Positions 21,089 to 56,269 of a stretch of 64,000 bases of DNA are shown piece after piece (positions within the stretch are counted from its first letter, which is position 1; the number at the start of each line of letters is the position of its first letter). A program made the position numbers and the translations under genes. Location of the stretch: the IMG/VR virus record IMGVR_UViG_3300028033_000029. The stretch is one strand, 5' to 3'. This DNA comes from an uncultured virus (IMG/VR IMGVR_UViG_3300028033_000029) (taxonomy: Duplodnaviria > Heunggongvirae > Uroviricota > Caudoviricetes). The notes under the pieces were generated by a model that worked only from the letters and a program-made list of their open reading frames with translations, searched no databases and was not told the DNA's origin.

Positions 21089-21095
21089 CTCACTT

Positions 21096-21293: not shown

Positions 21294-21295
21294 CT

Positions 21296-38466: not shown

Positions 38467-38788
38467 AAGCTTTATTTTATTATTATAAATTGTCATACAA
38501 TTCTAAAAAATCAAATAATGATTTACTTTCATAAAGTAAAGCAAAGAAAACATAGATATATTCACAAAAAATATAACAGTTTAAAAATAACATTATAACA
38601 GTTTAAAAGCAATATAACAGCAACAATAATAAAATTTGAGATTTTTTTATATATAACAGTCCAAAATTTATATTATAACAGTTTAAATTGTTTTAAAATT
38701 TTTAATATAAAAACTTTATTTTTTTTCTTGACATAACATATTAATAATGGTATAATTAAATCACAAAATAAATGAAGGAGGAGTTTAA

Positions 38789-39163
38789 ATGAATAAAAAA
38801 GAATTTAAAGAACTGCAAAAAAGATATTTGCAACTTAATAAAGAATTAGAAAAATTGAATAAAATTTATAAACACCAAATAAAACCATTTGAGGAGGAAT
38901 TTTTTGCCTCCTCAATGGATGATGAAGAGATAGATAAATTAGTAAAAAAAGATATGGAGATTAGGAAAAATCTCCATATCGATGAATTAGAAACAGAGTT
39001 AATAAAGATAAAGGACAAACTTATAACAGCAGGAGGAGAGTATATTTTAAAAATTGCTCCTCCTGAAGAAAAAAATACAATCGAATATTTATTAAAAAAT
39101 TATAAATATAACATTGAAATTACTGATAAAATCGCAAACATATTTGCTATAATGCAGGTTTAA
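38789..39163 (+). CDS. Early hypothetical protein (helical)
   Basis: Promoter, SD, terminator. Confidence 0.8.
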   Translation: MNKKEFKELQKRYLQLNKELEKLNKIYKHQIKPFEEEFFASSMDDEEIDKLVKKDMEIRKNLHIDELETELIKIKDKLITAGGEYILKIAPPEEKNTIEYLLKNYKYNIEITDKIANIFAIMQV

Positions 39164-39333
39164 AGCCTGCTTTTTTATTTATAACAGAAAACTATTATTA
39201 TTTAACAATATATAACAGCTTGAATTATTCAGAATATTTAAAATATAAAAACTTCAATTTTGCTCTTGACATACAACAAAAATAGTGATACAATTATGAT
39301 AGAATAAAAAAAATTAAAGGAGGAATTTTTAAA

Positions 39334-39516
39334 ATGAAAACATATTTAGTTATTGAAACAGGAGTTTGTGATTCTCCATGGTGTCCAGGCTATCATTTTA
39401 CAAGTGTTACTAAAGTTTTCAAAAATAAAGAAAAAGCCGAACAGTATTTGTTTGGCTTAAAAGAAAAAAATCCTCACTCACATTTTACAATTGAAGAAAT
39501 AGAATTGCAGGATTAA
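39334..39516 (+). CDS. Small early hypothetical protein
   Basis: Promoter, SD, terminator. Confidence 0.75.
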   Translation: MKTYLVIETGVCDSPWCPGYHFTSVTKVFKNKEKAEQYLFGLKEKNPHSHFTIEEIELQD

Positions 39517-39706
39517 AAAAATCCTGCTTTATTTTTTTTGTTTTAAATTGTCTTATAATTCTAAAAAATAATGATATTTATTCATATAATATATAACAGC
39601 AAAATTATTAGAAAATTTAAAATATAAAAACTTTATTTTTTCTCTTGACAAATAAACTTAATAATGATATAATTAAATTAGAAAATTTAAGGAGGAGGAA
39701 TAAAAA

Positions 39707-40090
39707 ATGATTAAAAAGATTAATGAAGATTTTGTATTTTACACCACTTGGAACAAGCTTTCAGGAGCTATTGAAAATTTACCCGACAATTACGAAGGCT
39801 TAAATTACCAACTTAAAGAAGATATACAAGTTAGGCTTATACCAATTCGGGATGATGATGGCGAAATAATCCCTGATTGGTTGGAAGTGGAAATACAAAA
39901 TGAATACGGCAATTATGATACAATATATTACGTACCTACCAGAGATTATGCGGATGAAGATGGTTATTTTTCTTATTCATGGAGTTCCACAGGAATTCAT
40001 GATTGGGTTCCTGAAGAACTACATGATAGAGTATATAACAGAGAAGGAGTGGCGGTGCATATAGATGTTTTAGAGTATTTGCAGGATTAA
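39707..40090 (+). CDS. Acidic early hypothetical protein
   Basis: Promoter, SD, terminator; ~28 D/E versus ~9 K/R. Confidence 0.8.
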   Translation: MIKKINEDFVFYTTWNKLSGAIENLPDNYEGLNYQLKEDIQVRLIPIRDDDGEIIPDWLEVEIQNEYGNYDTIYYVPTRDYADEDGYFSYSWSSTGIHDWVPEELHDRVYNREGVAVHIDVLEYLQD

Positions 40091-40220
40091 AATCCTGCTT
40101 ATTTTTTTATAACAGCGTAAATTGTGTGAAAATTTTAAAAATATAAAATTTATTTTTCTTATTGACAAGTAATTTAAATAATGATATAATTAAATTAGAA
40201 ATCAAAAAGGAGGGATTAAA

Positions 40221-40490
40221 ATGTCAGTTAAAAAGGAGCAAAAGTACAATATTACGATTTTAGAGACATGCACAAATAAAAAATTAAAAGCATTAGGGAT
40301 TATTCCCAATGCAGTTGTAACAAAAGTTGGAAATATTCATGGATTTGTTTATGCGAATGTTGTATCAGACATAGGAGAAATTTCTTACATTCCTATCAGT
40401 AAACATGCCAGATGGGAATTAGTGTTGTATTTTTTTAAAAAACACTTGACAAATAAAAAGAATAATGATATATTTAAAATAAAAACTTAA
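40221..40490 (+). CDS. Early hypothetical protein
   Basis: Promoter and SD. Confidence 0.7.
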   Translation: MSVKKEQKYNITILETCTNKKLKALGIIPNAVVTKVGNIHGFVYANVVSDIGEISYIPISKHARWELVLYFFKKHLTNKKNNDIFKIKT

Positions 40491-40504
40491 AAGGAGGGCT
40501 TTAT

Positions 40505-40681
40505 ATGGTGGAAGTAACGCTTATTAAAATTGGTAAAGGTAAAAATTCTAAATATTATGTCTATGATACGACAGAAATAAAACTAATAAGCAAACATACG
40601 TATTATAAATTAAGCAAAATATTGAATAAAGAAAAAACTGAATTAGCTAAAAAAATAGTCTCTAATTCAGGGTGGATTTAA
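40505..40681 (+). CDS. Small basic early protein (58 aa)
   Basis: Promoter 40446, AGGAGG SD, stop within hairpin; manual translation. Confidence 0.65.
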   Translation: MVEVTLIKIGKGKNSKYYVYDTTEIKLISKHTYYKLSKILNKEKTELAKKIVSNSGWI

Positions 40682-40735
40682 TCCACCTTGAATTAAAAAA
40701 AACAAAAAATAATAATTTTAAGGAGGAGAATAAAG

Positions 40736-40933
40736 ATGAATAAAGAAATTATTAATGCCTTTGAGGAATTTAAAAGTGCAAGTGTCAATTTTCTTGAAAT
40801 TATATCTAAATACAATTTAGATAGCAAAGAGGATTTTTGGGAAAACTATCCATTTGATAAAGATTTTATAGAAATTGTAGACAATATAATTGATTGGTAT
40901 AATGCAGTTTTTGACAGAAAGGAGGGGCAATAA
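40736..40933 (+). CDS. Small acidic early protein
   Basis: AGGAGG SD. Confidence 0.75.
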   Translation: MNKEIINAFEEFKSASVNFLEIISKYNLDSKEDFWENYPFDKDFIEIVDNIIDWYNAVFDRKEGQ

Positions 40934-40934
40934 A

Positions 40935-41033
40935 ATGAAAATTTTAAGTATGTTAGGTGAATTATTTACTTTGCTTTTAGGAATGTTTACAATTTATTTA
41001 TGGGCATGTATTTTAGCAGTTACATTAAAATAA
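40935..41033 (+). CDS. Small hydrophobic membrane peptide (32 aa)
   Basis: GGAGG SD; MKILSMLGELFTLLLGMFTIYLWACILAVTLK. Confidence 0.55.
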   Translation: MKILSMLGELFTLLLGMFTIYLWACILAVTLK

Positions 41034-41048
41034 TAAGGAGGTATTGGT

Positions 41049-41915
41049 ATGAAAATAACATTATATACTAATTATTTAGCCATTTCAGGAGTGGATATAA
41101 AATATACTTTTGATTTAGAAACATTACAAGGTACAAAAGAATTTGTAGATTATGAAGAAGGAGAAATGAAAACTGATATTATAACAGAGAAAGATAAAGA
41201 GATAATTCAAGCAGAATTAAACAATATAGAATTCCAACAAAAAATACAAGAGACACAAGCAAAAAACAAAAAGAGTATTAAACTATCAGCTTACAAATCT
41301 CCCGAAAAACAATTTAATGAGAAATTAGAAGGAGCTAAAGCAAAATTAGAAAAGGACTTCCTCAACATGCTTTCAAAAATTGAAAGGGAAGTCCAGTATC
41401 CATTTCAGTATGATAATTTATTAATCATTAAAGATAAAATTAATAATAATAAATTTTTTAAAGACCATATAACAGCTGAACAGTTGCAGTTATTAGAAAG
41501 CAAAATTGAGCAAGCTAAAAGAGTTAAAAAAGAGTATGAATATAAGCATGAGGTTATATTTAGTGTTAAACAAGATAATAATAACAGTATATTTTGTTAT
41601 ATGGATAGTAGCGGTTATTATTATCTTGTAACACAAAGACAGTATAAAACTAAAGCTATAACAGAATTATTTAGACAATTACTTACACAAGAAGGTTATA
41701 TAATAACAGACAATGAATTAACATTGCTTGATTATTATATATATAGAGAGACAAAGAAAAATATTGAAATAACAAGGATTGAATTAGAAAGAATGAGGCA
41801 AGAAAAGCAAATGCCATGTATTATATACCAAGAAACAGAGGACAGAATACTGAAAAAAATTTTTGACCCACTATTGATAAGCAAAAATTATAATGATATA
41901 ATAACAGCAAAATAA
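41049..41915 (+). CDS. Hypothetical protein
   Basis: 288 aa, SD. Confidence 0.8.
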   Translation: MKITLYTNYLAISGVDIKYTFDLETLQGTKEFVDYEEGEMKTDIITEKDKEIIQAELNNIEFQQKIQETQAKNKKSIKLSAYKSPEKQFNEKLEGAKAKLEKDFLNMLSKIEREVQYPFQYDNLLIIKDKINNNKFFKDHITAEQLQLLESKIEQAKRVKKEYEYKHEVIFSVKQDNNNSIFCYMDSSGYYYLVTQRQYKTKAITELFRQLLTQEGYIITDNELTLLDYYIYRETKKNIEITRIELERMRQEKQMPCIIYQETEDRILKKIFDPLLISKNYNDIITAK

Positions 41916-42071
41916 AAAAACAGAAGGAGGTCTTACCATGAAAATAAAAGCAATTTTATCAACCGAAGTCTTCCCAGTATTTGAAACCTGATGAGATAAG
42001 ATATAGTTACAATTTCATGCAATACAACAAAATAAAAGAAATGATACAAAAACTTAAAGGAGAGGAAAGCA

Positions 42072-42431
42072 ATGGAGCATAATAGTATAACAGCAAAAAT
42101 GGTAGAGACTTTCCTGAAAAAGACATATAACAGAATTAAAAAGGATGCTTTGTATGTTATGCAATATTATTCGCAATATCCAACACTTATAGATGATTAT
42201 TACAAGTTATTGGGTATGTATTCTGACAGATTGTGGAATTTACATAGTTGGGTGAAGAAGGTTGACAATATCGCAAAGTTACAAGAGCTTTTAAGGTCTT
42301 ACGATAGAGAATATAAAATATTTAAAAATATGGAAAAAGATGAGTTTTTATATAGTGATTTAGCTGACTGGTATGAAGATATTATTATTGGTTTAGAAAA
42401 AATTATGCAAAATTTTTCTAAAGAGTATTGA
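42072..42431 (+). CDS. Hypothetical protein
   Basis: 119 aa, SD. Confidence 0.75.
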   Translation: MEHNSITAKMVETFLKKTYNRIKKDALYVMQYYSQYPTLIDDYYKLLGMYSDRLWNLHSWVKKVDNIAKLQELLRSYDREYKIFKNMEKDEFLYSDLADWYEDIIIGLEKIMQNFSKEY

Positions 42432-42477
42432 CATTATAAGAATAACGATTTATAATAATGCAAAAGGAGGAGATATT

Positions 42478-42663
42478 ATGACTATAACAGCTTTTAATAA
42501 GTTTATTCAAGACTTAAAAAATTTTGTTGACAAAATGAATGAGAATAATATACCTAAGAATGAGCAGAAGATTCTATTAAAACATTATGTGACAATATAT
42601 AACATTCAACATAACAGCAGAATAAATTTAAATAAAAATAATATTGATTTGTTAGTTAGTTGA
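42478..42663 (+). CDS. Small hypothetical protein
   Basis: Promoter 42428, SD. Confidence 0.7.
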   Translation: MTITAFNKFIQDLKNFVDKMNENNIPKNEQKILLKHYVTIYNIQHNSRINLNKNNIDLLVS

Positions 42664-42740
42664 GGAGGGTTAAAATAAAAGAATATTTAAAAGATATTAT
42701 TAAAGAAATTCCGATATTTTAAAGATAAGGAGGAAGTAGT

Positions 42741-43856
42741 ATGAAGTTTAAAGTAAATAAAAAAGAATTAGAAAAAGCTTTAACTATTGTAAAAAAAGGG
42801 TTGGGTAAAAAAATTCCTATTTTAAAAAATGTACTTATAACAGTAGAAAATAGAAAAATAATACAATTTACTGCATCTGATTTAAAAATAATGGTGAGTT
42901 ATACTATTATTTCTAATGACTCAGAAGATGGAGCAGTTGTAGTTGATTTAAATGGATTGTTAAATATAGTAAAAACTTTACCTGATACAGATTTAGAGAT
43001 ATTTTTAGGGAATAACAGACTTATAATACAATATAACAATTCTCAAATAGAAATGGCTATTAATTTAAGTCCTGATGAGTATCCTCTGAGTATTCATGTT
43101 GTTGATATGGATAATGTATTTAGTATAACAGCGGAAAATTTACAGACTCTAATAGATAAAATAATATTTGCAGTGGATAAAAAAGGACACTATTCAGCAA
43201 GACCAGTATTGCAAGGAGTTTTGTTTGATATAACAGATGATACAATAAATGCAGTAGCGTCAGACGGGTATAGAATGGTGTTACATAAAACGAAGATAAA
43301 CAACGATATTGGTGTAGATACTCAATTAGTAATACCTGCTAAACTATTAGAAAAAGTTTATAAAGTTATAAAGTTAACAAAATACAAGGGAGATATAGAA
43401 GTTTACTATAACAGCAAAAACATATCATTCTACACAGAAGAATTTGAAGTAAGTGGATATTTGATAGATGGGAAATATTTTGATTATAAGTCAGTATTGC
43501 CAAAAGAATTTAATACTAAGGTAGTAGTTGATAAAAAAGATTTTGAAGATATACTCAAAAGAATGGAGGTTATTCCTTCATTAAAGGAAATGCCGATGGT
43601 GAAAATCATAACAGAAAATAGTAAAATTTACATACACTCTCATGAAGGAACTATAAGTTTAATTGAGAATATGTCAGCAAAAATAACAGGAGATAAAGTA
43701 GAAATAGGTTTTAGGGTGACTTATATTCTTGATTATTTAAAAAGGATTAAGGGTAATGAAGTGCTTATAAATATTATAAATTCAAATTCTCCTGCTATAT
43801 TTAAAGATAGTACCAATGAAGATTATCAATATTTAGTTATGCCAATAAGATTATAA
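42741..43856 (+). CDS. dnaN: DNA polymerase III beta sliding clamp
   Basis: 371 aa; PILKNVLI, RPVLQGV, ASDGYRM, C-terminal YLVMPIRL. Confidence 0.95.
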   Translation: MKFKVNKKELEKALTIVKKGLGKKIPILKNVLITVENRKIIQFTASDLKIMVSYTIISNDSEDGAVVVDLNGLLNIVKTLPDTDLEIFLGNNRLIIQYNNSQIEMAINLSPDEYPLSIHVVDMDNVFSITAENLQTLIDKIIFAVDKKGHYSARPVLQGVLFDITDDTINAVASDGYRMVLHKTKINNDIGVDTQLVIPAKLLEKVYKVIKLTKYKGDIEVYYNSKNISFYTEEFEVSGYLIDGKYFDYKSVLPKEFNTKVVVDKKDFEDILKRMEVIPSLKEMPMVKIITENSKIYIHSHEGTISLIENMSAKITGDKVEIGFRVTYILDYLKRIKGNEVLINIINSNSPAIFKDSTNEDYQYLVMPIRL

Positions 43857-43901
43857 TTTTTCATAACAGCGAAGGAGGTATAGTTATGAGTCCATGAATA
43901 A

Positions 43902-44648
43902 ATGCAAATAATAACAATAATAAACAATAAAATTGTGGAGGTAGATAGTTTAATGGATGAAATTAAATTAGAGTTAGTTAAAAGCGAAGAGTTTTTAGGT
44001 GTTAAGTGTGATTTTTATAGAGACCAAGATAATAATATATATATGACAAGGGAGCAAATTGGGCAAGCATTGCAATATAGTAATCCCCAGAAAGCTATAG
44101 ATAATATACATAGTAGAAATAAAGAAAGATTAGATAAATTTTCAGTTATGTACAAATTAAAAAGTAGTGATGGTAAATATTATAATACATTATTATATTC
44201 AAAAGAAGGTATTATGGAAATATGTAAATTATCATCGGCATTACCACAAAGACAAGAGTTATTATTACGTATTATAGGTTGTACACAACAAGAGATAAAT
44301 TTAATAATATATCAAAATAATCAATTATATAAGCAAAATGATTTTTATAATAAACTTTCTAATGTTTTACATAATATATGTAAAATAGAAAGAGAAGTAA
44401 AGGTTTTAAACTATAGAGTGGATTTCCTAATAAATAGACATATTATTATTGAATGTGATGAATTAGGACATAAAGATAGAAATAAAAAATATGAAATTAA
44501 AAGAGAACAAGATTTAATTAATGCAGGGTATAAAATTTTAAGATTTAATCCAGATGGTGATGATATATTTGAGTTTATAAATAAATTATTGATATTAATA
44601 AAAAATGATAATGACAAGCTCAAAGAATGGGGTTACATAACAGCTTAA
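43902..44648 (+). CDS. Bro-N/antirepressor domain fused to DUF559/Vsr-like nuclease
   Basis: MTREQIGQALQY.NP.KAI N-terminus; YRVDF...IECDELGH...ILRF C-terminus. Confidence 0.75.
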   Translation: MQIITIINNKIVEVDSLMDEIKLELVKSEEFLGVKCDFYRDQDNNIYMTREQIGQALQYSNPQKAIDNIHSRNKERLDKFSVMYKLKSSDGKYYNTLLYSKEGIMEICKLSSALPQRQELLLRIIGCTQQEINLIIYQNNQLYKQNDFYNKLSNVLHNICKIEREVKVLNYRVDFLINRHIIIECDELGHKDRNKKYEIKREQDLINAGYKILRFNPDGDDIFEFINKLLILIKNDNDKLKEWGYITA

Positions 44649-44779
44649 TTTTAAGGGTTTTGTGGTTCCCAAATAAAACCGTTATTTTACCTAACACATA
44701 ATTAATGATTGTACAGATGGTTATAAATTGTTATGAAGTTGGAATTATATAAATTTCAAAATAACAAGAAGGAGGTAAT

Positions 44780-45688
44780 TTGATGATAACATCAGAAGAA
44801 TTGTTAGAGAATAGAGATTTAAGAGAGCAGTTAATTAACAGACTTGAGGTATTAGATAAAGTTAAGCAAGTAGTAACAATGCCTAATACTGAATTATTAA
44901 CCATTGAACAGGTTGCAGATTATTATGAAGTTGATGCTAAAACAATTGATAAAATTGTGAATCGTCATTTAGACGAATTAACAGAAGATGGGTATAAAGT
45001 CTATTCGAGAGCAGAATTAATAAATCTTTTAAACCGACAAAATGTCGATTTAAAAAATTTAAAAGGAAAAACAATAATTACCATTGACAATCAAAGTGTT
45101 ATTATACCAAATAGAGGGTTAAGACTTTTTACAAGGCGGGCTTTGTTACGCGTAGGAATGTTATTAAGAGATTCAGAAATTGCCAAACGTGTAAGAACAT
45201 ATCTTTTAGATGTAGAAAATTTAGCAACAGAAGAACAAAAATTACGTGATATAACAGAAGAAGATAGATTGCTTTTGAGAGGCATTAAAGCAGAGAGTTT
45301 AGAAGAGCGCATTGAGGCTATTAATGAGATATACAAATATTATAACAGATTTAAAATACAAGCTGAAGAATCTCTCAAGGAAAACTTGTTATTAGCAAAG
45401 GGTATTTCTAGTTGGCATGAAAGAGAAGCTATAAACAAATTAATTAGAAAATTAGCAAACATAAAATATAATGGTAATTATGTTACAGCATGGAGTAAAT
45501 TGTATGATGAAATGTTATATAAACATCATATAAATGTACGAGCAAGGTTGGAGCATAATAAAGGGAAAACAATGTTTGATGTACTTAATTCTGAAGAAGT
45601 TATCAAAGCATTTCAATCAGCAGTAGCTCTGTGTAAAGAAGCGGATATTGATACAAATGAAATTTTGCAAAAAGTTAAAAATAAATAA
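44780..45688 (+). CDS. Antirepressor-like DNA-binding protein
   Basis: VADYYEV...LRVGMLLRDSEIAKRVRTYLL motif. Confidence 0.65.
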   Translation: MMITSEELLENRDLREQLINRLEVLDKVKQVVTMPNTELLTIEQVADYYEVDAKTIDKIVNRHLDELTEDGYKVYSRAELINLLNRQNVDLKNLKGKTIITIDNQSVIIPNRGLRLFTRRALLRVGMLLRDSEIAKRVRTYLLDVENLATEEQKLRDITEEDRLLLRGIKAESLEERIEAINEIYKYYNRFKIQAEESLKENLLLAKGISSWHEREAINKLIRKLANIKYNGNYVTAWSKLYDEMLYKHHINVRARLEHNKGKTMFDVLNSEEVIKAFQSAVALCKEADIDTNEILQKVKNK

Positions 45689-45786
45689 CTTCTAAGGGTT
45701 TTGCGGTTTTCCCATAAAAACCGCATTTTATAAAAAATATTGACAAATACAAATTATGATGATATAATATAACAGGAGGTGTTTAA

Positions 45787-45948
45787 ATGGGCGATATAAA
45801 GGAATTCAAAGGACGTATAGATATTAAATATATTGAAGAAATTATTAATAATTTATCAGAGGAAGAAATTCTAAAACTTTTAAGCTTGCCAGATGAAGAA
45901 ATTATGGAATTATTAGATGTTGATGATGAGGAGGGTGATGATAAATGA
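45787..45948 (+). CDS. Small highly acidic protein (53 aa)
   Basis: Promoter 45740, GGAGG SD; ~19 D/E; ATGA overlap with next gene. Confidence 0.7.
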   Translation: MGDIKEFKGRIDIKYIEEIINNLSEEEILKLLSLPDEEIMELLDVDDEEGDDK

Positions 45949-46472
45949 GAGAATATTATGTTAGCACTAAAGAAGTTGAAGGCAAAAAGTTTTATTATAT
46001 TGATTTTGGGTATGAAACTCACGGAAGAACAAGTTTTAGGTTGTGGGTTTCTTCAAAATTAATAAAAACAGATGATAATAATAGAGAATATATAGAATTC
46101 CCTATAACAGCAAAGATAGTAGAGACCGAAAAAAGAACTACAATTTTAAAACCACTACAAGAAGGTGAACAATATTATGTATTTGACTTATATCAACCAT
46201 GTGGTTATCGAGGTAGTGCTTATATAACAGTGTTAGAACCAGAGCCTTTAAATGTTAAAGTTTACAGGTACTACCATTCACCATTAGGAAATTTAGGAGA
46301 AGATTATGGCATGTTAATTATGGTAAATTCTGATAAGGTAAAAATTAAATGGGAAAGAACAGGACGTACTTACGGAGCACCCAAAGAAGGATACAGAGTG
46401 TATTATGCCGATGGAAAAACGGAAGAAATAGAACATATTGATTTAGAGGATTTGGAAGAGATAGAAAGTTAA
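45945..46472 (+). CDS. Hypothetical protein
   Basis: 175 aa, followed by hairpin terminator near 46474-46498. Confidence 0.8.
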   Translation: MREYYVSTKEVEGKKFYYIDFGYETHGRTSFRLWVSSKLIKTDDNNREYIEFPITAKIVETEKRTTILKPLQEGEQYYVFDLYQPCGYRGSAYITVLEPEPLNVKVYRYYHSPLGNLGEDYGMLIMVNSDKVKIKWERTGRTYGAPKEGYRVYYADGKTEEIEHIDLEDLEEIES

Positions 46473-46588
46473 AGTGAGAGGGTAAAATACCCTCTCACAA
46501 AATAATAATAAAAATATTCCCCCTCTGATGTATAGAATACATAAGAATTGAATATAATAATAACAGAAGATAAAAATATGAGGAGGAG

Positions 46589-46936: not shown

Positions 46937-46961
46937 TAACAGGAAGGAGGTAAATAAAAAT

Positions 46962-48934: not shown

Positions 48935-48935
48935 T

Positions 48936-49883
48936 ATGGAATTGTATAATCAAGAATTAAAAGAAAGATTTTTAGAACAATACCCTGAATCAACAAGATT
49001 AACATATAGAAATGTTTTTAAAAAGACAGCTCCGAAAGAAAAAGAATTACAAAAAGACTTATATCAGTTTAATTTGGAGGAATTAGATGATTTATTATAT
49101 TCATTTGGTAGCACTTCTGCACAATATATAGCAACTGCTTTGGTCGTATTGGCAAAATATGTTGATTTTTGCATACAAGAAGGATATATAGGAAATCCAG
49201 CAGGAATTAATTATGTGAGATTAATTAATCCCACATTAGAAAATTTAAAAAAGTACGAACATGGTATTGATAGAAAATATAGATATATCGATAGAGAAGA
49301 ATTACAACAAATAATTAATATGTGTGTGAATGCACAAGATGCGGTTATATTTGCGCTGTTGTTTGAGGGAGTAATGGGAGAAAATTTAGAAGAATTAATT
49401 AATCTAAGGGTAGATGATTGCAATTTTATGGATAATATCCTTACTTTAAGACGTAATGATGGAACAAAAAGAAGAATCATTGTGCATCCAGACACTATGA
49501 GACTTATTAACAAGGCGATAAATCAATTTGAGTATTACAGAGTTTCTGATATAACTAATGGTGTATTTTTATTACAAAATACTCCTTATGTGTTAAGACC
49601 TATAGTAAGTGAACGAGTTCCAACCGAAAAAGTAAGTCATCAAATAATTAGAAATAGGTTAAAAAAGATAGCGGAAATGTATGGGAATCCATACCTAAAT
49701 CCTAAAAATATTTTTAGGAGTGGTATGATAGATTATATAAGAAGATACATGAAGAAATATGATATAAAGTCTTTTAAAGATTTAAAGCATAAGGATATGG
49801 CGAACATTTTAAAAAGATTTGGAATAGAGGTTACAACACAAAGTGTTTACTTATATCGTACTAGATTGAGGGAATATGTTTAG
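48936..49883 (+). CDS. Integrase-fold lysogeny repressor (SPbeta YopR/MrpR-like)
   Basis: YN.ELKERFL, NAQDAVIFALLFEG, RSGMI; canonical recombinase catalytic set not evident. Confidence 0.7.
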   Translation: MELYNQELKERFLEQYPESTRLTYRNVFKKTAPKEKELQKDLYQFNLEELDDLLYSFGSTSAQYIATALVVLAKYVDFCIQEGYIGNPAGINYVRLINPTLENLKKYEHGIDRKYRYIDREELQQIINMCVNAQDAVIFALLFEGVMGENLEELINLRVDDCNFMDNILTLRRNDGTKRRIIVHPDTMRLINKAINQFEYYRVSDITNGVFLLQNTPYVLRPIVSERVPTEKVSHQIIRNRLKKIAEMYGNPYLNPKNIFRSGMIDYIRRYMKKYDIKSFKDLKHKDMANILKRFGIEVTTQSVYLYRTRLREYV

Positions 49884-49915
49884 AAGGCAGTTCCCTCAAA
49901 TACATAGTGCAAACG

Positions 49916-50542
49916 CTATTTTTTAGGTTTTTTGAATACACCCATATAAACACCATTAATGATTATATCGTTAGCAGGGTGTACGATGTCAGAATAAGCA
50001 GGGTTAGAAGAACGCAGAATAACCATATCAGAATTTTCAGGATGATATAGATGTTTTAAGCAAGTTTCATTCCCATCGATTATAACAGCAACTATTTGCC
50101 CATTATAATCTACATAATTTTGCACTCTTATGAGTACAATATCACCATCCTCTATGCCATCTCCTATCATACTATCGCCTTCTGCTTTTAAAAGGAAGTG
50201 TTCATATCCAACACTTAACATTTCTTTTGGAAATGGCATATACCCTTGTAAGTGTTCTTCGGCAAATAAGGGTTGTCCTGCACGAATATTGCCTAGAATA
50301 GGTAATATAACCATTTCTACTTCTTTAACATTTGAAAAGTTAGGTGTTTCATTTTCAAAAAAATATTGTATTGGTACTCCTAAAACAGTAGCAATTTTTT
50401 GCAATTTATCTATATCTAGTTTTATTGTGTTGCTTTCGTACTTATTAAGGGTAGAATGTGATATACCTAAAAGTTGTGCTAATTGTTTTTGATTTAAACC
50501 TTTATTCATACGTGCTTTTCTAATCTTTTCACCAAGAGTCAT
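49916..50542 (-). CDS. LexA/CI-like repressor (XRE HTH + S24 peptidase)
   Basis: HTH N-terminus, AG cleavage site, GDSM catalytic Ser, CLK catalytic Lys. Confidence 0.92.
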   Translation of the reverse strand: MTLGEKIRKARMNKGLNQKQLAQLLGISHSTLNKYESNTIKLDIDKLQKIATVLGVPIQYFFENETPNFSNVKEVEMVILPILGNIRAGQPLFAEEHLQGYMPFPKEMLSVGYEHFLLKAEGDSMIGDGIEDGDIVLIRVQNYVDYNGQIVAVIIDGNETCLKHLYHPENSDMVILRSSNPAYSDIVHPANDIIINGVYMGVFKKPKK

Positions 50543-50574
50543 TTTAAAAACTCCCTTCTGTTTTTGATAATATT

Positions 50575-50640
50575 ATTATAACTAATTTCAAAAAAATACG
50601 CAAATTTTTTATTGACATTTCATCACAAGAAATATATAAT
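50575..50640. promoter_or_regulatory. Divergent promoters at repressor
   Basis: Plus TTGACA-17-TATAAT 50612-50640; minus TTGCGT-17-TATAAT 50575-50603. Confidence 0.7.
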
Positions 50641-50691
50641 AAAATTAAATGACAATAATTTATTTTTAATCACAAAAAATAAAAAATATGA

Positions 50692-51108
50692 ATGGAGGTT
50701 ATAAATATGGAGGGAAAAATCTTTAAAAAACCACAATTAAGGAGTAAATATATGGAGAGGTGGTACGAGATTTTATGCAATACTTCCGAAAGAGAGGAAG
50801 AATTCATTGAAAGATTTTACGAAAATAACGGATGGATATTAAAAGCTTTGTACAACTATCGAATATACCAAATTCAACAAGGCAGAGGACAGAATATTAC
50901 ACCACAAGAATTGTCTCAAACAAGAGAAGAGGACGAGCTTATACACAAATTAGAAGAGATGTTTTTATATCCAATTTATAAATCAACTTTAAAGTTAATA
51001 AGAGAGACATTTATTAATTATGAGGAATTATTGGAATTACATAGCAAATATACAGAATATCCTTTAGAAAAAATAATTGTAGAATATAGAAATAATTTTA
51101 TTTATTAA
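50692..51108 (+). CDS. Hypothetical protein (start probably 50707)
   Basis: Divergent from repressor; GGAGG precedes second ATG. Confidence 0.7.
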   Translation: MEVINMEGKIFKKPQLRSKYMERWYEILCNTSEREEEFIERFYENNGWILKALYNYRIYQIQQGRGQNITPQELSQTREEDELIHKLEEMFLYPIYKSTLKLIRETFINYEELLELHSKYTEYPLEKIIVEYRNNFIY

Positions 51109-51160
51109 ATAGGGGAAACGAGGAAAGGGTAAAAAAATAAAAAACAAGGAGGATGGTATT

Positions 51161-51682
51161 ATGCATATAGCATTAACAGGCTGGGCAGGTGCAGGAAAAA
51201 CTACAGTTGCCCAGTATTTGGAACAAAAGTATAGGTATAAACGAATTAGTTTTGCTGATGGAATAAAAGATATTGCAAAAAAATATTTTTTTGTGCAAGA
51301 AAAAAATAGGAAATTGTTACAACAAATCGGTGAAAAAATGAGAGAAATAGATCAAGATGTATGGGTAAAATACACACTTCATAGGATAGAATACATAGAA
51401 TTAGATTCGCCAGTTGTAATTGATGATTTAAGACGTATGAATGAATTTGAGGCTTTACAAAGGAAAGGTTTTATAGTAATACGTATTGAAGCAAATGAAG
51501 ATATAAGGATTGATAGGCTAATTAAAAGAGATGGCTTTTGTGATAGAACTTTACTTTATAATGAAAGTGAAAATGGAGTTGCACATTTGGAATTCCCTAT
51601 AATATATAATAATGGTACCTTAGATGAATTATATAGAAATATTGATAAATTAATGACAAATTTACTGGTTTCCAATTATTAA
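51161..51682 (+). CDS. Nucleotide (dNMP-type) kinase
   Basis: GWAGAGKT P-loop; SFAD..K, LLQQIG..MR, VIDDLR..NE. Confidence 0.85.
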   Translation: MHIALTGWAGAGKTTVAQYLEQKYRYKRISFADGIKDIAKKYFFVQEKNRKLLQQIGEKMREIDQDVWVKYTLHRIEYIELDSPVVIDDLRRMNEFEALQRKGFIVIRIEANEDIRIDRLIKRDGFCDRTLLYNESENGVAHLEFPIIYNNGTLDELYRNIDKLMTNLLVSNY

Positions 51683-51759
51683 AATAACAGAAATTTGTAA
51701 TTGCGAGGTGTTATTATGTTATAAAAAAGGAACTAAAAAGATAAATGGAGGGGTAGTAT

Positions 51760-52305
51760 ATGAGTTTTTATCGATTAATTTTCTTTATTGTGTTACTCAT
51801 AATATTAATAATAACACCAATACATACTTCTAATAAAAGTACAATTTTATTGAAAAATAATGAAATTTACAAAGAAAAAATTGCAAAAATAAAAGATAAT
51901 AATAATAATAATACAGTTAAAACTCAAAAAAATGCAAGTTTAAATAATAATAACATCAAAAAAGAAGAAGAACAGCAATATAAAGTAGTTATTATGGAGG
52001 TTACCGCATATACCTTAAATGAATGTGGTAAATCTCCTGATGATAAATATTATGGTATAACAGCAAGCGGGACAAGAGCAAGAGAGTATCGAACTGTTGC
52101 AGCAAGTAGAAGCATACCATTTGGTACAAGAATTAAAATACCAGCTTTTGAAGAGTTTGTGGGTAGGAATAATATTGAGTTTGTTGTTGAAGATAGAGGG
52201 GGCGCTATAACAGAAGGAAAACTTGATGTGTATGTATCAGATGTTGATTTAGCTAAGCAGTGGGGCAGAAGAAAGGTTGAGGTAATAATTTATGGGAGGG
52301 ATTGA
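51760..52305 (+). CDS. 3D-domain cell-wall protein
   Basis: N-terminal TM; TAY, GITASG, EDRGGAI...LDVY. Confidence 0.88.
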   Translation: MSFYRLIFFIVLLIILIITPIHTSNKSTILLKNNEIYKEKIAKIKDNNNNNTVKTQKNASLNNNNIKKEEEQQYKVVIMEVTAYTLNECGKSPDDKYYGITASGTRAREYRTVAASRSIPFGTRIKIPAFEEFVGRNNIEFVVEDRGGAITEGKLDVYVSDVDLAKQWGRRKVEVIIYGRD

Positions 52306-52306
52306 T

Positions 52307-52571
52307 ATGTTATTTAAAATTGGCGTTTTCTTTGTAATAATTTTCTTTTTAGTGTGGGCATATGTGATTTTTTCTTCAGGAACAGGAAATCATCATAATA
52401 GAGATTGGAGATGATATTATGTGGTTAGTAATAGTAATAATATTGTATGGTACTATATCAGCTTTGATAGGATTTATGTTATGTGCCTCATTTACGGCGG
52501 GTAAGATAAGCGAGTTAGAAGCACAACTATATGAATTGCATCAAAATAACAGAGGGGATGTTAATGGATAG
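52307..52571 (+). CDS. Two small membrane ORFs (52307-52414, 52419-52571)
   Basis: SD-preceded hydrophobic 35 and 50 aa peptides by manual translation. Confidence 0.45.
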
Positions 52572-52827
52572 GTTTGAGCAATTTCTTTTAAAGGAGTTGC
52601 AAAAAGCAAGAGATGAGTTTGAGTACATTGAAAGCTGGTTAGAGCGTGCAGAAAGAGAATATAAAGAAAATATTGTAATTTTTGGTAAAAAATATACATC
52701 TGATGCTGAAGTTGTAGATGCTAGAAGGGCATATCGCACTGTAAAACGTGAGCTTGGATTGTTGGAATCTATTTATGAAACGTACAAATGTTTTAAAGAG
52801 GGAAAGGAAATGTACAAAAATGAGTAA
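52531..52827 (+). CDS. Hypothetical coiled-coil protein
   Basis: ORF track; start probably internal (MDRFEQ). Confidence 0.6.
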   Translation: MNCIKITEGMLMDRFEQFLLKELQKARDEFEYIESWLERAEREYKENIVIFGKKYTSDAEVVDARRAYRTVKRELGLLESIYETYKCFKEGKEMYKNE

Positions 52828-53062
52828 AGATAAAATAGTTTTTACCTTTTATGGAATTTTTACGGGTACAGAATATAAGATTTATCCGACAGAGGGTAGA
52901 TATGAGATTATTTACGAAGAATTACCTAAAGAAATGGTCGAGGCAATGGTAAGTGGGCATATCGAACGATTAGGTGTGGCTTTTAGAACTTTTTATTATA
53001 CTTTACTGTACAATTTAGGTATTTTTACAATGATAGACAAAATAATCAAAAAGAATTGTTAA
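52748..53062 (+). CDS. Hypothetical protein (start probably 52820)
   Basis: ORF track. Confidence 0.55.
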   Translation: MSLDCWNLFMKRTNVLKRERKCTKMSKDKIVFTFYGIFTGTEYKIYPTEGRYEIIYEELPKEMVEAMVSGHIERLGVAFRTFYYTLLYNLGIFTMIDKIIKKNC

Positions 53063-53277
53063 GTAAAAACTGTTATGGTAAATGTGGGGTGTTGATTGTG
53101 ATTATATGGAAGAAAAATAATTGTCTCATTAAACAAGATGAGATTGGGGAATATTTACAAAAAATTGCAAGTCAGATGTTTGAAGAAGGGGTAGAAGTAT
53201 TAAATGTAACAATAATTAAAAGCGGAAGAGTTGGGTATGTGAGTGTAGATATTTTTGGAAAAGCAAACGAAAATTAG
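53056..53277 (+). CDS. Hypothetical protein
   Basis: ORF track. Confidence 0.5.
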   Translation: MLSKNCYGKCGVLIVIIWKKNNCLIKQDEIGEYLQKIASQMFEEGVEVLNVTIIKSGRVGYVSVDIFGKANEN

Positions 53278-53337
53278 ATTTTTCTTTTTTGTTTTTGTGC
53301 TTTAATAATAGAAATAAATTTCAAAGGAGATGGTAAA

Positions 53338-54330
53338 GTGGTAATTACGGAAACGCAAACTGATAAAGAATTAGAAGGGAAAATGCCTACCAAAGTGAAA
53401 CTTTTTACCCACACTGATTTGGATGGCGTTGGTTGTGCAATATTGGGGAAAATAGTGAGTATGGTAAATAATATTGATGTGGAAATAGAATTTTGTGATT
53501 ATAATAATATAAATGACAAAGTTAATGATTTTTTGAAAGTAATTAATAATTATGATAAAGTATTCATAACGGACATATCAGTAAATGAGGAAATAGCAGA
53601 AAAGCTTGATAAATATAGTGATAAAGTGGTTTTGTTAGACCATCATAAAACGGTAAACTTTTTAAATAAATATAAATGGGCGCACGTATATGAGACTTTA
53701 GCGATCGATTTTGGGATTGATATACATATAAAAGTGTGTGGGGCATATTTATTTTTGGATTATTTAGTTAATTCAGGTTATTTTAAAAAATTTGAATTTT
53801 TACACATTCTAACTGATTTTATTGGAGTGATTCGAGAATATGATACTTGGGAATGGGTAGAAATTGATAATATTTTAGCAAAACAATTGAATGATTTATT
53901 GTATATTTTGGGTAGGGAAAGATTTATTGATGAGTTTGTAAGACAATTATTAAATGGTAAATTTGTAATAAATGATAAATTGAATTTTTTATTAGAATTA
54001 GAACAAGAGAAGATTGATGATTATATAGATAGTAAAAATAAAAATTTAGTTGTTAGAAATATAAGTGAATATAAAGTAGGAATTGTGTTTGCTGAAAGAT
54101 ACATATCGGAATTAGGAAACAAACTAATGGAGTTACATCCTGAATTAGATTTTGTTGCGATTGTGAATACGGATAAAGCAATTAGTTATAGAACAAATAA
54201 AGGCAATATTGATTTAAGTGAATTTGCAAAAATATATGGTGGTGGGGGACATCCACAGGCAGCAGGAAGTCTTATAAATGATGAAATGAAGAATAAAATC
54301 ATTGATGTATTATTCCAAAAAAAATTTTGA
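53338..54330 (+). CDS. DHH/DHHA1 phosphoesterase (nanoRNase NrnB-like)
   Basis: HTDLDG, ITD, LDHH, GGGGH..AAG. Confidence 0.9.
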   Translation: MVITETQTDKELEGKMPTKVKLFTHTDLDGVGCAILGKIVSMVNNIDVEIEFCDYNNINDKVNDFLKVINNYDKVFITDISVNEEIAEKLDKYSDKVVLLDHHKTVNFLNKYKWAHVYETLAIDFGIDIHIKVCGAYLFLDYLVNSGYFKKFEFLHILTDFIGVIREYDTWEWVEIDNILAKQLNDLLYILGRERFIDEFVRQLLNGKFVINDKLNFLLELEQEKIDDYIDSKNKNLVVRNISEYKVGIVFAERYISELGNKLMELHPELDFVAIVNTDKAISYRTNKGNIDLSEFAKIYGGGGHPQAAGSLINDEMKNKIIDVLFQKKF

Positions 54331-54337
54331 AGTGGTA

Positions 54338-54435
54338 TTGACAAAATAAAAATTTAGTGTTAATATAAAATTACAAATAAAAATAATAAAAATTTTTGAA
54401 AAAGGTATTGACAAAATAAAAATATATGGTATAAT
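54338..54435 (+). promoter_or_regulatory. Tandem duplicated sigma-A promoters
   Basis: GGTATTGACAAAATAAAAAT repeated 70 bp apart (-35 at 54338 and 54408). Confidence 0.8.
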
Positions 54436-54521
54436 AAAAATGTAAGAGAACACATTGCATACTACTTTTACTAATGATATAAATACAAAATAGAAATTGT
54501 AATTTGTATCTTGTTAAAAAT

Positions 54522-54786
54522 AAGATGCGTACAGCAATATTTTAAAATATTTTAATTAGAGCGGATAAGGCGCTAACAGCAAATATTCTTCAGAGGTAAG
54601 ATTGAGGATCTTGTACTTACAAGCGTCTTGTAATGAGAGACACTAACAGCAAATAACAAGGATAAGCTTGCTAAGCTTATATTCTGGTGTCTCGTTAAGT
54701 TATCTAACTTATGAGTTACTGACTTTGGAGTCAGTTTCGATACTTACAGCATAAACAGTATAATAATAATGATTAAAAGTATCGAG
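54522..54786 (+). ncRNA. Array of four ACAGCA-motif RNA units (first lacks its own 3' arm)
   Basis: Units at 54522, 54567-54629, 54637-54693, 54736-54786: 8-10 bp closing stems of different sequence, each followed by ACAGCA. Confidence 0.8.
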
Positions 54787-54796
54787 GAGGGATATT

Positions 54797-56269
54797 ATGA
54801 GTGAAAGATTTATTAATGCATTAAAGACGGAAAATAATTTTACCGCTACAGAAAATGAGGCAATAGCATTAAAAAGTACAAACAGTGCTTTATTAGATTT
54901 ATTTGGCGAAATAGGGGCTTTAAGAAATAGGGCAGAGAGTGAGATAGAGGCAAAATTTATAAAAGCATTTGCAGAAGATAAGTTGTTGGCAACTAAAATG
55001 GCATTTTACGCAAGAGATATTAGAGGTGGTCTTGGTGAAAGAAGAGTGTTTAGAGTAATTTTAAAATACTTAGCTAATGTTCGTCCAGAAATAGTGATAA
55101 AAAACCTGTATAATATACCTTTTTATGGCAGATGGGATGACTTATATACCCTAATAGGTACCCCAGTAGAAAAAAGCATGTGGGAATTCATAAAAAGACA
55201 GTTGCAAGAAGACTTAGAAAGCGTGGCTAATAATAAACCAGTAAGCTTGTTAGGGAAATGGTTAAAGTCAGTAAACACAAGCTCACAAGAATCAAGAGTA
55301 TTAGGTAAATTAACCGCCAAAAATTTAGGATTAAGTGAAAAACAATATAGAAAAATATTGTCAGAGCTTAGGAAATATATAGATGTAGTAGAAAGAAAGA
55401 TGACGGCTAACGAATGGGATAAAATAAATTACTCATCTGTTCCTTCAAGAGCTATGACGATATATAGAAATGCTTTCTATAGACATGACCCTAACAGATT
55501 TGATGAGTTTATTGAAAATGTTAAGCAGGGAAAAGAAAAAATAAATTCATCTACCTTATATCCTTACGATATATTAGAAAGAATGTGTGATGAAGGGTTT
55601 GATTTAGCATATATAAAGTATGACCCAGTATTAGAAGAACAATGGAAAGCACTACCGAACTATATAGATGGCGAACATAATGTATTGGTAATGGCAGACA
55701 CTTCAGGTAGTATGATAGGTAGACCAATGGCAACATCGGTAGGATTAGCGATATACTTTGCTGAAAGGAATAAAGGTATATGGCGCAACAAATTTATGAC
55801 GTTCTCTTCTGAACCTTCATTTGTAGAAATAAAAGGTGATACATTATATGAAAAATTGAAGTGTGTGCCAGAAATTGTAGGAAATACAAATTTAGAAGCT
55901 GCATTAAAATTAATTTTAGGTACTGCTATTAAGCATAAATTAACACAAGAAGATATACCAAAATCATTAATCATTATATCAGATATGCAATTTGATGATG
56001 CTACTGAGGATTATGGTAAAATGACATTTTACGATACAATGAAAGAAATATATAACAGAGCAGGATATGAAATACCAAATATAGTATTTTGGCAAGTAGA
56101 TAGTAGAAGAGATTCATTCCAAGTCACATCAGAATATAAAGGAGTACAATTAGCAAGTGGACAATCGCCAAGCGTATTTAAATCGATACTTAATACAATA
56201 GGGAAAACCCCATATGAAGCAATGTTAGAAATATTGAATAATCCAAGATATGATTATGTGGTAGTCTAA
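54797..56269 (+). CDS. DUF2828-family protein (TROVE/Ro60-like helical domain + vWA)
   Basis: TEN.A...ST...LDLF, RDIRGGLGER, YGRWDD; MIDAS DTSGS, ISDMQFD, VFW. Confidence 0.85.
   Translation: MSERFINALKTENNFTATENEAIALKSTNSALLDLFGEIGALRNRAESEIEAKFIKAFAEDKLLATKMAFYARDIRGGLGERRVFRVILKYLANVRPEIVIKNLYNIPFYGRWDDLYTLIGTPVEKSMWEFIKRQLQEDLESVANNKPVSLLGKWLKSVNTSSQESRVLGKLTAKNLGLSEKQYRKILSELRKYIDVVERKMTANEWDKINYSSVPSRAMTIYRNAFYRHDPNRFDEFIENVKQGKEKINSSTLYPYDILERMCDEGFDLAYIKYDPVLEEQWKALPNYIDGEHNVLVMADTSGSMIGRPMATSVGLAIYFAERNKGIWRNKFMTFSSEPSFVEIKGDTLYEKLKCVPEIVGNTNLEAALKLILGTAIKHKLTQEDIPKSLIIISDMQFDDATEDYGKMTFYDTMKEIYNRAGYEIPNIVFWQVDSRRDSFQVTSEYKGVQLASGQSPSVFKSILNTIGKTPYEAMLEILNNPRYDYVVV

Follow-up and report, generated by a model that had tools for sequence, protein, structure and literature searches.

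Why does one short word, the heptamer ATAACAG, recur dozens of times on a single strand of the early region of a phage genome, and what kind of machine would read it? The question is raised by the uncultured virus IMGVR_UViG_3300028033_000029, of which we analysed one stretch of 64,000 nucleotides (64 kb; hereafter the window). Pfam, PHROGs and tblastn searches against GenBank phages identify the window as a large SPbeta-like siphophage with ~29% G+C. An earlier note, made from the sequence alone, had described the word as saturating positions 38573 to 56058 and had suggested several readers for it. Here we show that ATAACAG is exact, strand-polar, selected, recurrent in distant relatives and confined to one strand genome-wide. 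We tentatively propose that the array is a signal for the packaging or ejection of phage DNA, with the packaging motor (terminase) as its candidate reader. Few sequence signals are known that organise whole chromosomes; polar DNA words, Chi and KOPS for example, belong to them, and to our knowledge none has been established for the genome of a tailed phage.

An exact, strand-polar word in the early arm

The window contains 50 exact copies of ATAACAG, 46 of them on the plus strand (38573..56058) and four on the minus strand (12749, 15586, 21378 and 53070); 100 dinucleotide-preserving shuffles of the window gave a mean of 13.4 and a maximum of 21 for both strands together. Between 38.5 and 48.5 kb there are 40 copies on the plus strand and none on the minus strand, and from 1 to 38.5 kb there are none on the plus strand and three on the minus strand. 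These figures bear out the hand count of the earlier note, which gave ~46 plus-strand copies, five of them in 38573-38681 and ~40 by 48332, with very few in the first 38 kb; each position that it listed was correct. An order-3 Markov scan of the region returned ATAACAG (z 12.5) and the 8-mer TATAACAG (z 16.9) as the top outliers. The base at -1 is T in 32 of the 46 window sites, and the farther flanks are weakly A-rich. Because all 21 single-mismatch variants of ATAACAG were at background between 38.5 and 48.5 kb, with none enriched, we treat the heptamer as an exact word.

Counted per kilobase from 38.5 kb, the copies number 8, 3, 2, 7, 6, 3, 3, 3, 3 and 2; beyond the first five, the remaining 35 copies of the array are spread over 9.6 kb. 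The density gradient described previously is only rough, and an extent of the array to 56058, as had been claimed, is not supported. Open reading frames (ORFs) past 48.9 kb hold three copies against 2.0 expected, and past 48.4 kb three of seven sites (the union of both phages) are common to the window and G002, the relative described below; we therefore set the limits of the selected array at 38573-48332. The tail beyond 48.4 kb is probably not under selection and appears neutral. The copies show no helical phasing at 10.5 nucleotides (nt; Rayleigh p = 0.13), and together with the lack of a clear excess of RNA accessibility (see below) this suggests neither a cooperative DNA coat nor a single-stranded RNA target. 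Replication-origin iterons were considered and rejected, since only the first five copies are clustered, the copies are not phased at 10.5 nt and no initiator gene adjoins them.

Selection on nucleic acid rather than protein

Within the array, 27 of the 40 copies lie inside ORFs and 13 between genes. Coding copies are read in frame 0 (Ile-Thr-x) or frame 1 (x-Asn-Ser/Arg), the remaining frame being one that would hold TAA. We evaluated this coding fraction against codon-aware nulls, for all of which the ORF sets were our own longest-ORF calls and not a curated annotation. The array ORFs (8742 nt in total) contain 27 copies, compared with 8.3 expected under synonymous-codon shuffling (maximum 15 in 300 shuffles) and 1.9 expected when codon order was shuffled (maximum 7), so that the enrichment survives a codon-aware null. 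Nineteen of the 21 Ile-Thr-[ADEGV] tripeptides in these ORFs are written with ATAACAG, and the Ile-Thr dipeptide itself occurs 34 times against 15.8 expected. Given that the counts exceed both codon shuffles and that Ile-Thr is in excess, the word has shaped the choice of codons as well as the amino-acid sequence. Selection for this single exact word is strong enough to have altered proteins.

The sliding-clamp gene dnaN, in which six or more copies had been noticed, contains seven, and an eighth lies 7 nt past its stop codon. A copy on the non-coding strand of the repressor had likewise been noticed correctly; it lies at 50082 in the tail, antisense within the S24 repressor gene. The use of two reading frames, the intergenic copies, the codon-aware nulls and the retention of 28 of 29 sites in a relative support the earlier claim that selection on the array targets nucleic acid and not protein.

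Three of the in-ORF copies, in three genes, lie in stretches of ~28 nt that are alike at 79% (42083-42110, 43121-43148 and 46100-46127) and encode similar peptides (ITAK/E..V/LET-like). This similarity hints that some copies may have spread as longer patches.

Conservation and recurrence in other phages

G002, a 97.8-kb relative from IMG/VR, carries ATAACAG 60 times in forward and 8 times in reverse orientation, with 54 against 1 between 3 and 21 kb. The window and G002 are mosaic in the array region. In the alignable array segments, where background identity is 82-96%, 28 of 29 window sites are exact in G002, compared with ~12.5 conserved sites expected from the segment identities by our own arithmetic; inserts specific to G002 also carry the word. 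Megablast of the array against GenBank phages gave no match, and of two scans of genome contigs, the one with YopQ gave none and the other a 4.7-kb contig from a Clostridiaceae metagenome-assembled genome as the sole relative. Among the sequencing runs, the listed carriers of the array region were 14 contigs, all from subsurface, oil or landfill metagenomes and none from RNA. None of the 40 variable positions listed, of 705 in the runs, falls inside ATAACAG, which is uninformative with 1.1 expected.

In four runs (X2, X4, X5 and X6), 38400-48500 shows many module swaps, whose joints skip or replace 0.1-7 kb. The array region is therefore a hotspot of gene turnover in which the word is nonetheless maintained.

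Further phages were chosen for counts of ATAACAG as carriers of a yopQ homologue. Geobacillus virus E3 has 15 sites, and an unbiased scan of its genome returned CATAACA and ATAACAG as the top polar 7-mers. Psychrobacillus phage Perkons has 27 sites at 5396-22590 with none on the opposite strand there, Mammaliicoccus phage phi127 has 16, and two Staphylococcus SPbeta-like phages have a weak array of ~7 sites each. We also screened 31 further IMG/VR contigs with the 8-mer TATAACAG, and arrays were found in G003 (27 sites, 25 of them within 5 kb), G013 (~52) and G008 (39), with weaker signs in G012, G014 and G015. By ATAACAG counts, the array is absent from SPbeta, phi3T, LIBA2945, G018, G022 and G025. 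Proteins common to the array phages, SroE and SroF among them, are 21-44% identical, and ATAACAG is unchanged.

Arrays in the relatives lie between the start of the early arm and sroDEF, on the strand that is sense for this arm. The array reaches yopQ in the window, G002 and phi127, and stops 3-16 kb before sroD/E/F in Perkons, G003, G008, G013 and E3. The array of E3 ends 12 kb from yopQ because genes for TnpA, TnpB-like proteins and methyltransferases sit between it and sroDEF; this stretch (104.3-117.3 kb) encodes an IS200/IS605-type TnpA and contains three TnpB-like genes and two DNA methyltransferase genes. With SPbeta AimR as the tblastn query (E<=1e-3), no AimR homologue was detected in any of the six array sequences searched (window, G002, E3, Perkons, phi127 and a Staphylococcus SPbeta-like phage); a homologue is present in phi3T and missing from array-free LIBA2945. 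The arbitrium-carrying B. subtilis phages are without the array, and TATAACAG arrays upstream of sroDEF offer a simple marker that divides SPbeta-like phages into two groups.

A strand rule that spans the genome

Sequence outside the arrays was split into the distal early arm, where the array strand is sense, and the late arm, where it is antisense, and counts were compared with an order-2 Markov expectation. The distal-early class pools eight genomes (window, G002, G003, G013, G008, Perkons, E3 and phi127) and the late class seven, G008 being a fragment without the late arm. On the array strand, the word occurs 26 times against 53.7 expected in the distal early arm (P = 2e-5) and 4 times against 25.4 in the late arm (P = 2e-7). 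The opposite orientation is neutral outside the arrays (24 against 27.7, and 34 against 40). No such depletion is seen in six relatives without the array (20 against 22.5, and 33 against 29.4).

The same pattern was obtained when we shuffled our own ORF calls in seven genomes, the window being excluded. The complement of the word occurs 3 times in late ORFs, compared with 21.6 expected when codon order was shuffled and 17.5 under synonymous shuffling (minima 10 and 7 in 200 shuffles). The distal early ORFs contain ATAACAG 17 times, against 29.9 and 27.4, respectively. The opposite orientation was at expectation in both ORF classes, with 27 sense-oriented words against 25.4 in late ORFs. In array phages, the word is tolerated on one DNA strand inside the array alone, regardless of the local direction of the genes. 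Within the arrays, the only credible gene on the opposite strand is a Myb-like gene in G008 and G013, whose lack of words in 573 nt is uninformative.

Since the word is avoided where the array strand is the antisense of late genes, a reader of sense mRNA is inadequate, and RNA antitermination on sense mRNA, as suggested previously, leaves this avoidance unexplained. A duplex-binding repressor indifferent to orientation is also inadequate, because only one orientation is avoided. These data argue for a direction-sensitive reader that acts on DNA and not on sense mRNA. Of the readers proposed in the earlier note, sites that orient a translocase fit this genome-wide confinement to one strand.

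A possible link to the physical end of the genome

The available text of the Perkons paper reports that PhageTerm assigns this phage defined termini with 264-bp direct terminal repeats and that its record is the packaged form (PMC13245101). In the record, the first 264 bases recur exactly at the end. The Perkons array lies 5.4-22.6 kb from the left terminal repeat, equivalent to 4-16.5% of the molecule, and points away from the end. For SPbeta-like phages of B. subtilis, the accessible part of a preprint places the pac or opening site and the start of packaging between yonP and yonR, and describes packaging as 'counter-clockwise', with reads piling up to the left of the start point (bioRxiv 10.1101/2021.11.22.469490). 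This opening point is the same divergence point as the array-side arm start. If the plots in that part of the preprint follow the deposited records, the late arm would be packaged first, and the proximal early arm would be packaged last and ejected first. The earlier proposal that the sites mark the genome end entering first gains support, as to the link with an end, from the position of the Perkons array and the SPbeta-like divergence point; that this end is the first to enter is a step that we infer.

In the window, the ORF-poor stretch at 34450..37290 is, by synteny, a candidate for a virion end or pac site. The stretch contains repeated elements of 27-36 nt (34970, 36449, 36597 and 36893) and is ~89% conserved in G002. 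In the E3 record the arm start is at neither end, since the arm goes on through the RecD2-like gene at 478-2652. Each copy of the 264-bp repeat of Perkons (121-127 and 136668-136674) holds the word in the opposite orientation; these are the only opposite-orientation words in the first 76 kb, and chance is possible, with 7 in 137 kb.

A packaging or ejection signal as the favoured reading

We rank a packaging or ejection signal first on four grounds: the array is associated with a genome end, the strand rule holds over the whole molecule, the word is exact, and its placement is indifferent to coding. In such a model, ATAACAG, preferably as TATAACAG, would be a direction-sensitive DNA signal in a lineage-spanning group of SPbeta-like phages, packed on one strand in the first 5-27 kb of the early arm, beside the point at which virion DNA is opened and upstream of sroD/E/F (yopPQR). 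Its reader would be a machine that traverses the whole genome in one fixed direction, the favoured candidate being terminase. Starting at the end site, the motor would load the late arm first and would not reach the words until the final 10-20% of its run, where they could act as an approach or termination cue that slows the motor or arms it for the end cut. On infection, the word-rich stretch would be the first out of the capsid. The direction of packaging, terminase as the reader and the effect on the motor are all points that we infer. A wider statement, that SPbeta-like phages carry a hitherto undescribed code of genome architecture in which one 7-letter word is allowed on one strand only in the last-packaged, first-injected 10-20% of the genome, is purged from the rest of that strand, and is read as a position and direction signal by the packaging or ejection machinery, is slightly less probable than the packaging or ejection signal as such. 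If true, this would be the first KOPS-like system of dispersed polar words that serves a viral DNA motor, and phages of several Bacillota families would have conserved it; the array would then show how large phages with defined ends sense position on their DNA.

Several points weigh against a packaging or ejection signal. We know of no terminase that reads a dispersed array of words, and the same terminase family is present in array-free SPbeta, phi3T and LIBA2945. Clostridium phage c-st, which we take to have terminal repeats, has no polar array in its first 26 kb. The direction of packaging is taken from the accessible preprint text on array-free B. subtilis phages, and comparison of window positions 33.2-38.6 kb with the end regions of Perkons and SPbeta gave no similarity, leaving the end of the window genome without a location. 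Depletion is ~7-fold in the late arm compared with ~1.7-fold in the distal early arm, a difference that the model does not predict, and the codon-aware nulls depend on ORFs that we called ourselves. The strand rule could also arise from RNA polymerase that moves rightward in the early phase, provided that early transcription reaches the late arm. The best gene correlate of the arrays is also a MazF gene and not a packaging gene, a correlation that is unexplained.

This correlate comes from phyletic profiling, in which ~2700 self-called ORFs from 14 phage genomes were grouped into single-linkage blastp families (E<=1e-4) and 13 genomes were scored (seven with and six without the array). No family was found in all seven array genomes and none of the six array-free genomes. 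The phage MazF gene, always in or beside the array, was present in five of seven array genomes and none of six array-free genomes, followed by the RecD2-like helicase gene, the first gene of the arm (five of seven against one of six). A PIN-PhoH protein at first fitted as reader, being present in E3 and phi127 and missing from SPbeta, LIBA2945 and the Staphylococcus phage, and was rejected because Perkons lacks it and a contig of Clostridium phage D-1873 has it without an array. The reader is directly testable in culturable phage-host pairs, namely those of the Geobacillus, Psychrobacillus and Mammaliicoccus phages.

Alternative readers

Among other machines that move one way along the genome, the chief alternative is RNA polymerase transcribing rightward in the early phase. 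Host polymerase, or a factor riding on it, would read the word in the nascent RNA or the non-template strand while moving rightward from the early promoters, and the signal could set pausing or processivity, or aid polymerase-driven DNA entry as in T7. The word has the orientation of every array gene, twelve consensus sigma-A-type promoters face rightward in the region, TATAACAG matches the -10 hexamer at five of six positions, and a universal host enzyme would account for one word across host genera. The array covers about the first fifth of the genome, an extent similar to the host-transcribed part of T7. We nevertheless regard this explanation as unlikely: late-sense words are neutral (27 against 25.4) and late-antisense words avoided (3 against 21.6), which would need early run-on into the late arm, at least four copies sit between a predicted terminator and the next promoter, and SPbeta and phi3T have the same host-type polymerase and no array. 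The density of 40 copies per 10 kb also far exceeds that of known signals, those of the nut, put and ops type using far fewer sites. Cleavage of the transcript, with AUAACAG as the exact-match target of an endoribonuclease (a phage MazF-family enzyme or another RNase), could shut off early transcripts, as with T4 RegB, or tip the lysis-lysogeny decision, as with host MazF in SPbeta and phi3T. The word is exact and contains ACA, and the phage MazF gene is its best phyletic correlate. The avoidance on the antisense strand of late genes, however, cannot stem from sense mRNA, E3 and phi127 carry arrays without MazF, and some copies fall where no transcript is predicted. Canonical Bacillota MazF is reported to cut UACAUA. 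In Perkons, G008 and G013 the MazF retains the S. aureus-type GSEQ loop and EQxRTxDK, and in the window and G003 it differs, so that five phages share one word without a common distinctive MazF; reading the loop motifs in this way presumes which MazF residues contact RNA. Accessibility of the word in folded RNA was weakly above flank-shuffled controls (p = 0.30, 0.37, 0.19, 0.033 and 0.028), being no better than the controls in three of five arrays. A precedent exists in the same phage family, as transcripts of SPbeta and phi3T are enriched in the MazF sites UACAU/UACAUA according to the accessible text of a preprint (bioRxiv 10.1101/2023.04.27.537455), and our own scan of the SPbeta early arm independently put TACATA first among polar hexamers (73 copies where 26.4 are expected, and 21 on the opposite strand). 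On balance, RNA cleavage appears distinctly unlikely. Were an RNase or a polymerase-bound factor the reader, the array would amount to a new level of control over early genes in a phage family that serves as a model for lysis-lysogeny decisions.

Binding of the duplex word by SroE/YopQ or another lysogeny protein, which would block polymerase from the early promoters in the manner of stoperators, would suit the position of the array upstream of the sroD/E/F repressor genes in every array phage, the dozen consensus promoters that would need silencing in a lysogen, and the six of 40 array copies that lie within 25 nt of a gene end. The SroF/MrpR boxes of SPbeta are likewise asymmetric and co-oriented with transcription (10 of 10; box data from the available part of PMC10516654). 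A duplex binder would, however, be titrated by either orientation, and only one is avoided elsewhere. In the accessible text of a further preprint, SroF reads a 26-bp box as a monomer, the SPbeta and phi3T repressors do not cross-act and the role of SroE is still open (bioRxiv 10.1101/2025.11.27.690993); the 7-mer stays unchanged between phages with SroE and SroF of 21-44% identity, even though SroF repressors are phage-specific. No degenerate variants are enriched, and SPbeta and phi3T have SroE and SroF without an array, which makes a stoperator-like role very unlikely. A link to SPBRE was also rejected, as the SPbeta box core that we derived lacks ATAACAG and the TACATA words of SPbeta run opposite to the box orientation. 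The earlier note had proposed Chi-like protection from AddAB, that is, a control word for a helicase-nuclease (AddAB/RexAB or a phage RecD2-like helicase) that protects or processes the first-entering end. Chi classically takes the form of an exact polar oligomer close to a DNA end, CTGTTAT lies on the strand that ends 3' at the left end of Perkons, which is the orientation relative to the DNA end that the Chi rule requires, and a RecD2-like helicase gene is present in five of seven array and one of six array-free genomes. This proposal has been weakened, and we consider it the least probable of those weighed. Chi words known from Bacillus, Staphylococcus and Lactococcus are G-rich and differ between genera and from ATAACAG. 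The array word, in contrast, is one and the same in phages of Geobacillus, Psychrobacillus and Mammaliicoccus and in AT-rich uncultured phages, spanning at least four genera of hosts. The window, G002 and Perkons have no RecD2-like gene, the first word of Perkons lies ~5 kb inside the end and would leave the terminal repeat unprotected, and protection of an end does not account for the avoidance seen elsewhere on that strand.

Comparison with known systems

Among known systems, KOPS (read by FtsK) and SRS (read by SpoIIIE) are polar 8-mers of bacterial chromosomes, and cosQ of lambda is an element for the termination of packaging. Like the array, all three are short, exact, strand-polar and coding-independent signals that matter to a double-stranded DNA motor from one side, with an orientation set relative to a terminal processing site. 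As for KOPS and SRS, the array word is exact, polar and independent of coding (40 against 0, two frames, intergenic copies, no enriched variants), and its polarity follows the DNA molecule and not the genes, being depleted in sense and antisense contexts. KOPS and SRS are, in contrast, spread over whole replichores and not excluded elsewhere, whereas the array word is purged from the rest of the strand; cosQ is a single element at the cut site, whereas the array comprises 27-54 copies in 5-27 kb and starts ~5 kb from the end.

The MazF-site enrichment of SPbeta and phi3T resembles the array in belonging to the same phage family and in being an over-representation of a short, exact word in the early arm, sense strand. 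Early genes of a temperate phage are the setting of the array, of this enrichment and of stoperators alike. ATAACAG is another word, lies proximally and upstream of sro, is denser (up to 5 per kb) and is excluded from the antisense strand of late genes as well, so that selection is not limited to the sense strand (3 against 21.6 in late ORFs). Stoperators of cluster A mycobacteriophages, bound by L5 gp71, are 13 bp long, somewhat degenerate, present in both arms and specific to an immunity group. They share with the array dozens of asymmetric sites that are co-oriented with transcription in and between genes, and would share with it a tie to lysogenic silencing. The array is, in contrast, an invariant 7-8-mer across distant phages, occupies one region and obeys a strand rule independent of gene direction. 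Repressor sites are typically 13-26 bp, variable and immunity-specific; here 7-8 nt are conserved and no variants are enriched.

SPBRE or SroF (MrpR) boxes belong to the same phage family, are asymmetric and co-oriented (10 of 10), and have a reader that is encoded right after the array. They differ in numbering ~10, in their length of 15-26 bp, and in lying at promoters and outside ORFs; they are also phage-specific, and the SPbeta box does not contain ATAACAG. Chi resembles the array as an exact, enriched, polar oligomer that is read from one side, but is host-specific and not avoided elsewhere, whereas the same heptamer is found in Geobacillus, Psychrobacillus, Mammaliicoccus and uncultured phages.

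No description of the array was found in the literature, supplements and the SroE/SroF binding maps reportedly published by Brady et al. 2023 (Cell Host Microbe) lying outside the search. A full-text search for the string ATAACAG with 'phage' gave only unrelated primer-type matches among those listed, and the word 'motif' does not occur in the available text of the Perkons paper (PMC13245101).

Gene layout of the window

Structural and late genes lie on the minus strand at 1-33 kb. A YopP/SroD-like gene at 33.3 kb (Table 1), counterparts of whose G002 orthologue are found in E3, Perkons and phi127, opens the rightward early arm, which continues with a 2.8-kb ORF-poor and very AT-rich stretch. 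Small genes with promoters, dnaN, Bro/ORF6N-type genes and a MazF gene come next, followed by homologues of YopQ/SroE and YopR/SroF(MrpR), a convergent LexA-like repressor gene and replication genes. The array occupies the early arm from the first small genes up to yopQ, its final two copies being within the YopQ/SroE gene, the E3 orthologue of which matches Pfam DndB. Rfam gave no match across 33-50 kb of the window, and no tRNA genes were found in the window.

Table 1. Features of the window discussed in the text
Feature	Position	Strand	Remarks
Selected array	38573..48332	+	Exact copies of ATAACAG, in ORFs and intergenic
Five-copy cluster opening the array	38573..38681	+	Spacings 22, 19, 39 and 22 nt; non-coding; upstream of consensus promoter 38728
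Sparse tail, six copies of ATAACAG	48333..56058	+	50082, 51684, 52057, 52207, 52546, 56052; selection improbable
YopP/SroD-like tyrosine-recombinase gene	33364..34449	+	First gene of rightward arm; domain search; G002 orthologue matches SPbeta yopP
ORF-poor stretch	34450..37290		20-25% G+C; between arm start and first early promoters
Twelve sigma-A-type promoters, rightward	37294..50640	+	Based on 12/12 or 11/12 consensus matches only
dnaN (sliding clamp)	42741..43856	+	All seven copies of ATAACAG kept in G002 though protein 77% identical
MazF/PemK-family endoribonuclease gene	46589..46936	+	Pfam E 2.4e-27; 99% identical in G002
YopQ/SroE homologue (DndB/DGQHR, ParB-like)	47618..48934	+	phrog_5732; 31% identical to SPbeta yopQ
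MrpR/YopR/SroF-like integrase-fold repressor gene	48936..49883	+	Pfam MrpR_N_CB and MrpR_C_cat; array ends just before
LexA/CI-like S24 repressor gene	49916..50542	-	Convergent with sro genes; one antisense ATAACAG
Probable large terminase gene	22877..24385	-	Collinear with G002 ORFs matching SPbeta yonF terminase

Four of the promoters lie in homologous cassettes, with ATAACAG 52-54 nt upstream of the -35 hexamer, and the copies at 39181 and 40109 come straight after terminator T-tracts. The repeat cassettes, of ~118 nt, are at 38685, 39223, 39602 and 40119, and each is followed by a short gene and a terminator. Many of the twelve promoters have an extended -10 TG, and the layout of promoters and cassettes is akin to a host-takeover module.

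The MazF gene of the window is flanked by ATAACAG at 46560 and 46936. Its nearest solved relatives are the MazFs of S. aureus and B. subtilis, and no MazE was recognised beside it. MazF-family genes without a recognisable adjoining MazE are also present in G003 (106968-107636), G008 (44198-44617), G013 (16290-16697) and Perkons (15265-15627); the conserved neighbour of MazF in G008 and G013 is the divergently transcribed Myb-like gene for a DNA-binding protein. In SPbeta, TACATA leads the polar hexamers at 82.5-134 kb, in the distal early arm and on its sense strand; ATACATA, a 7-mer, is among the top polar words in phi3T, in a Staphylococcus SPbeta-like phage (80-120 kb) and in Perkons at 69-81 kb. 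TACATA corresponds to the reported MazF site of B. subtilis and S. aureus, U^ACAUA, where B. subtilis MazF cuts according to the accessible text of a preprint (bioRxiv 10.64898/2026.08.06.743204). Enrichment of MazF sites is known for SPbeta and phi3T, and the Perkons and Staphylococcus phages are an extension of it.

Pfam gave no match for the terminase candidate of the window. The terminase gene is continuous in the window, whereas in G002 (88.2-90.4 kb) it is split by ~2 kb with a LAGLIDADG/AP2-type ORF; the LAGLIDADG/AP2 gene of the window lies instead just downstream of terminase, at 24641-25513. A polar heptamer of another kind, CAATTAG, occurs 13 times in 4 kb on the plus strand of the C. 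difficile phage LIBA2945 (44-48 kb), with 15 against 1.7 expected in 12 kb, far from the yopQ gene. The heptamer may form another type of word array, or it may simply be repeated inside a single gene.

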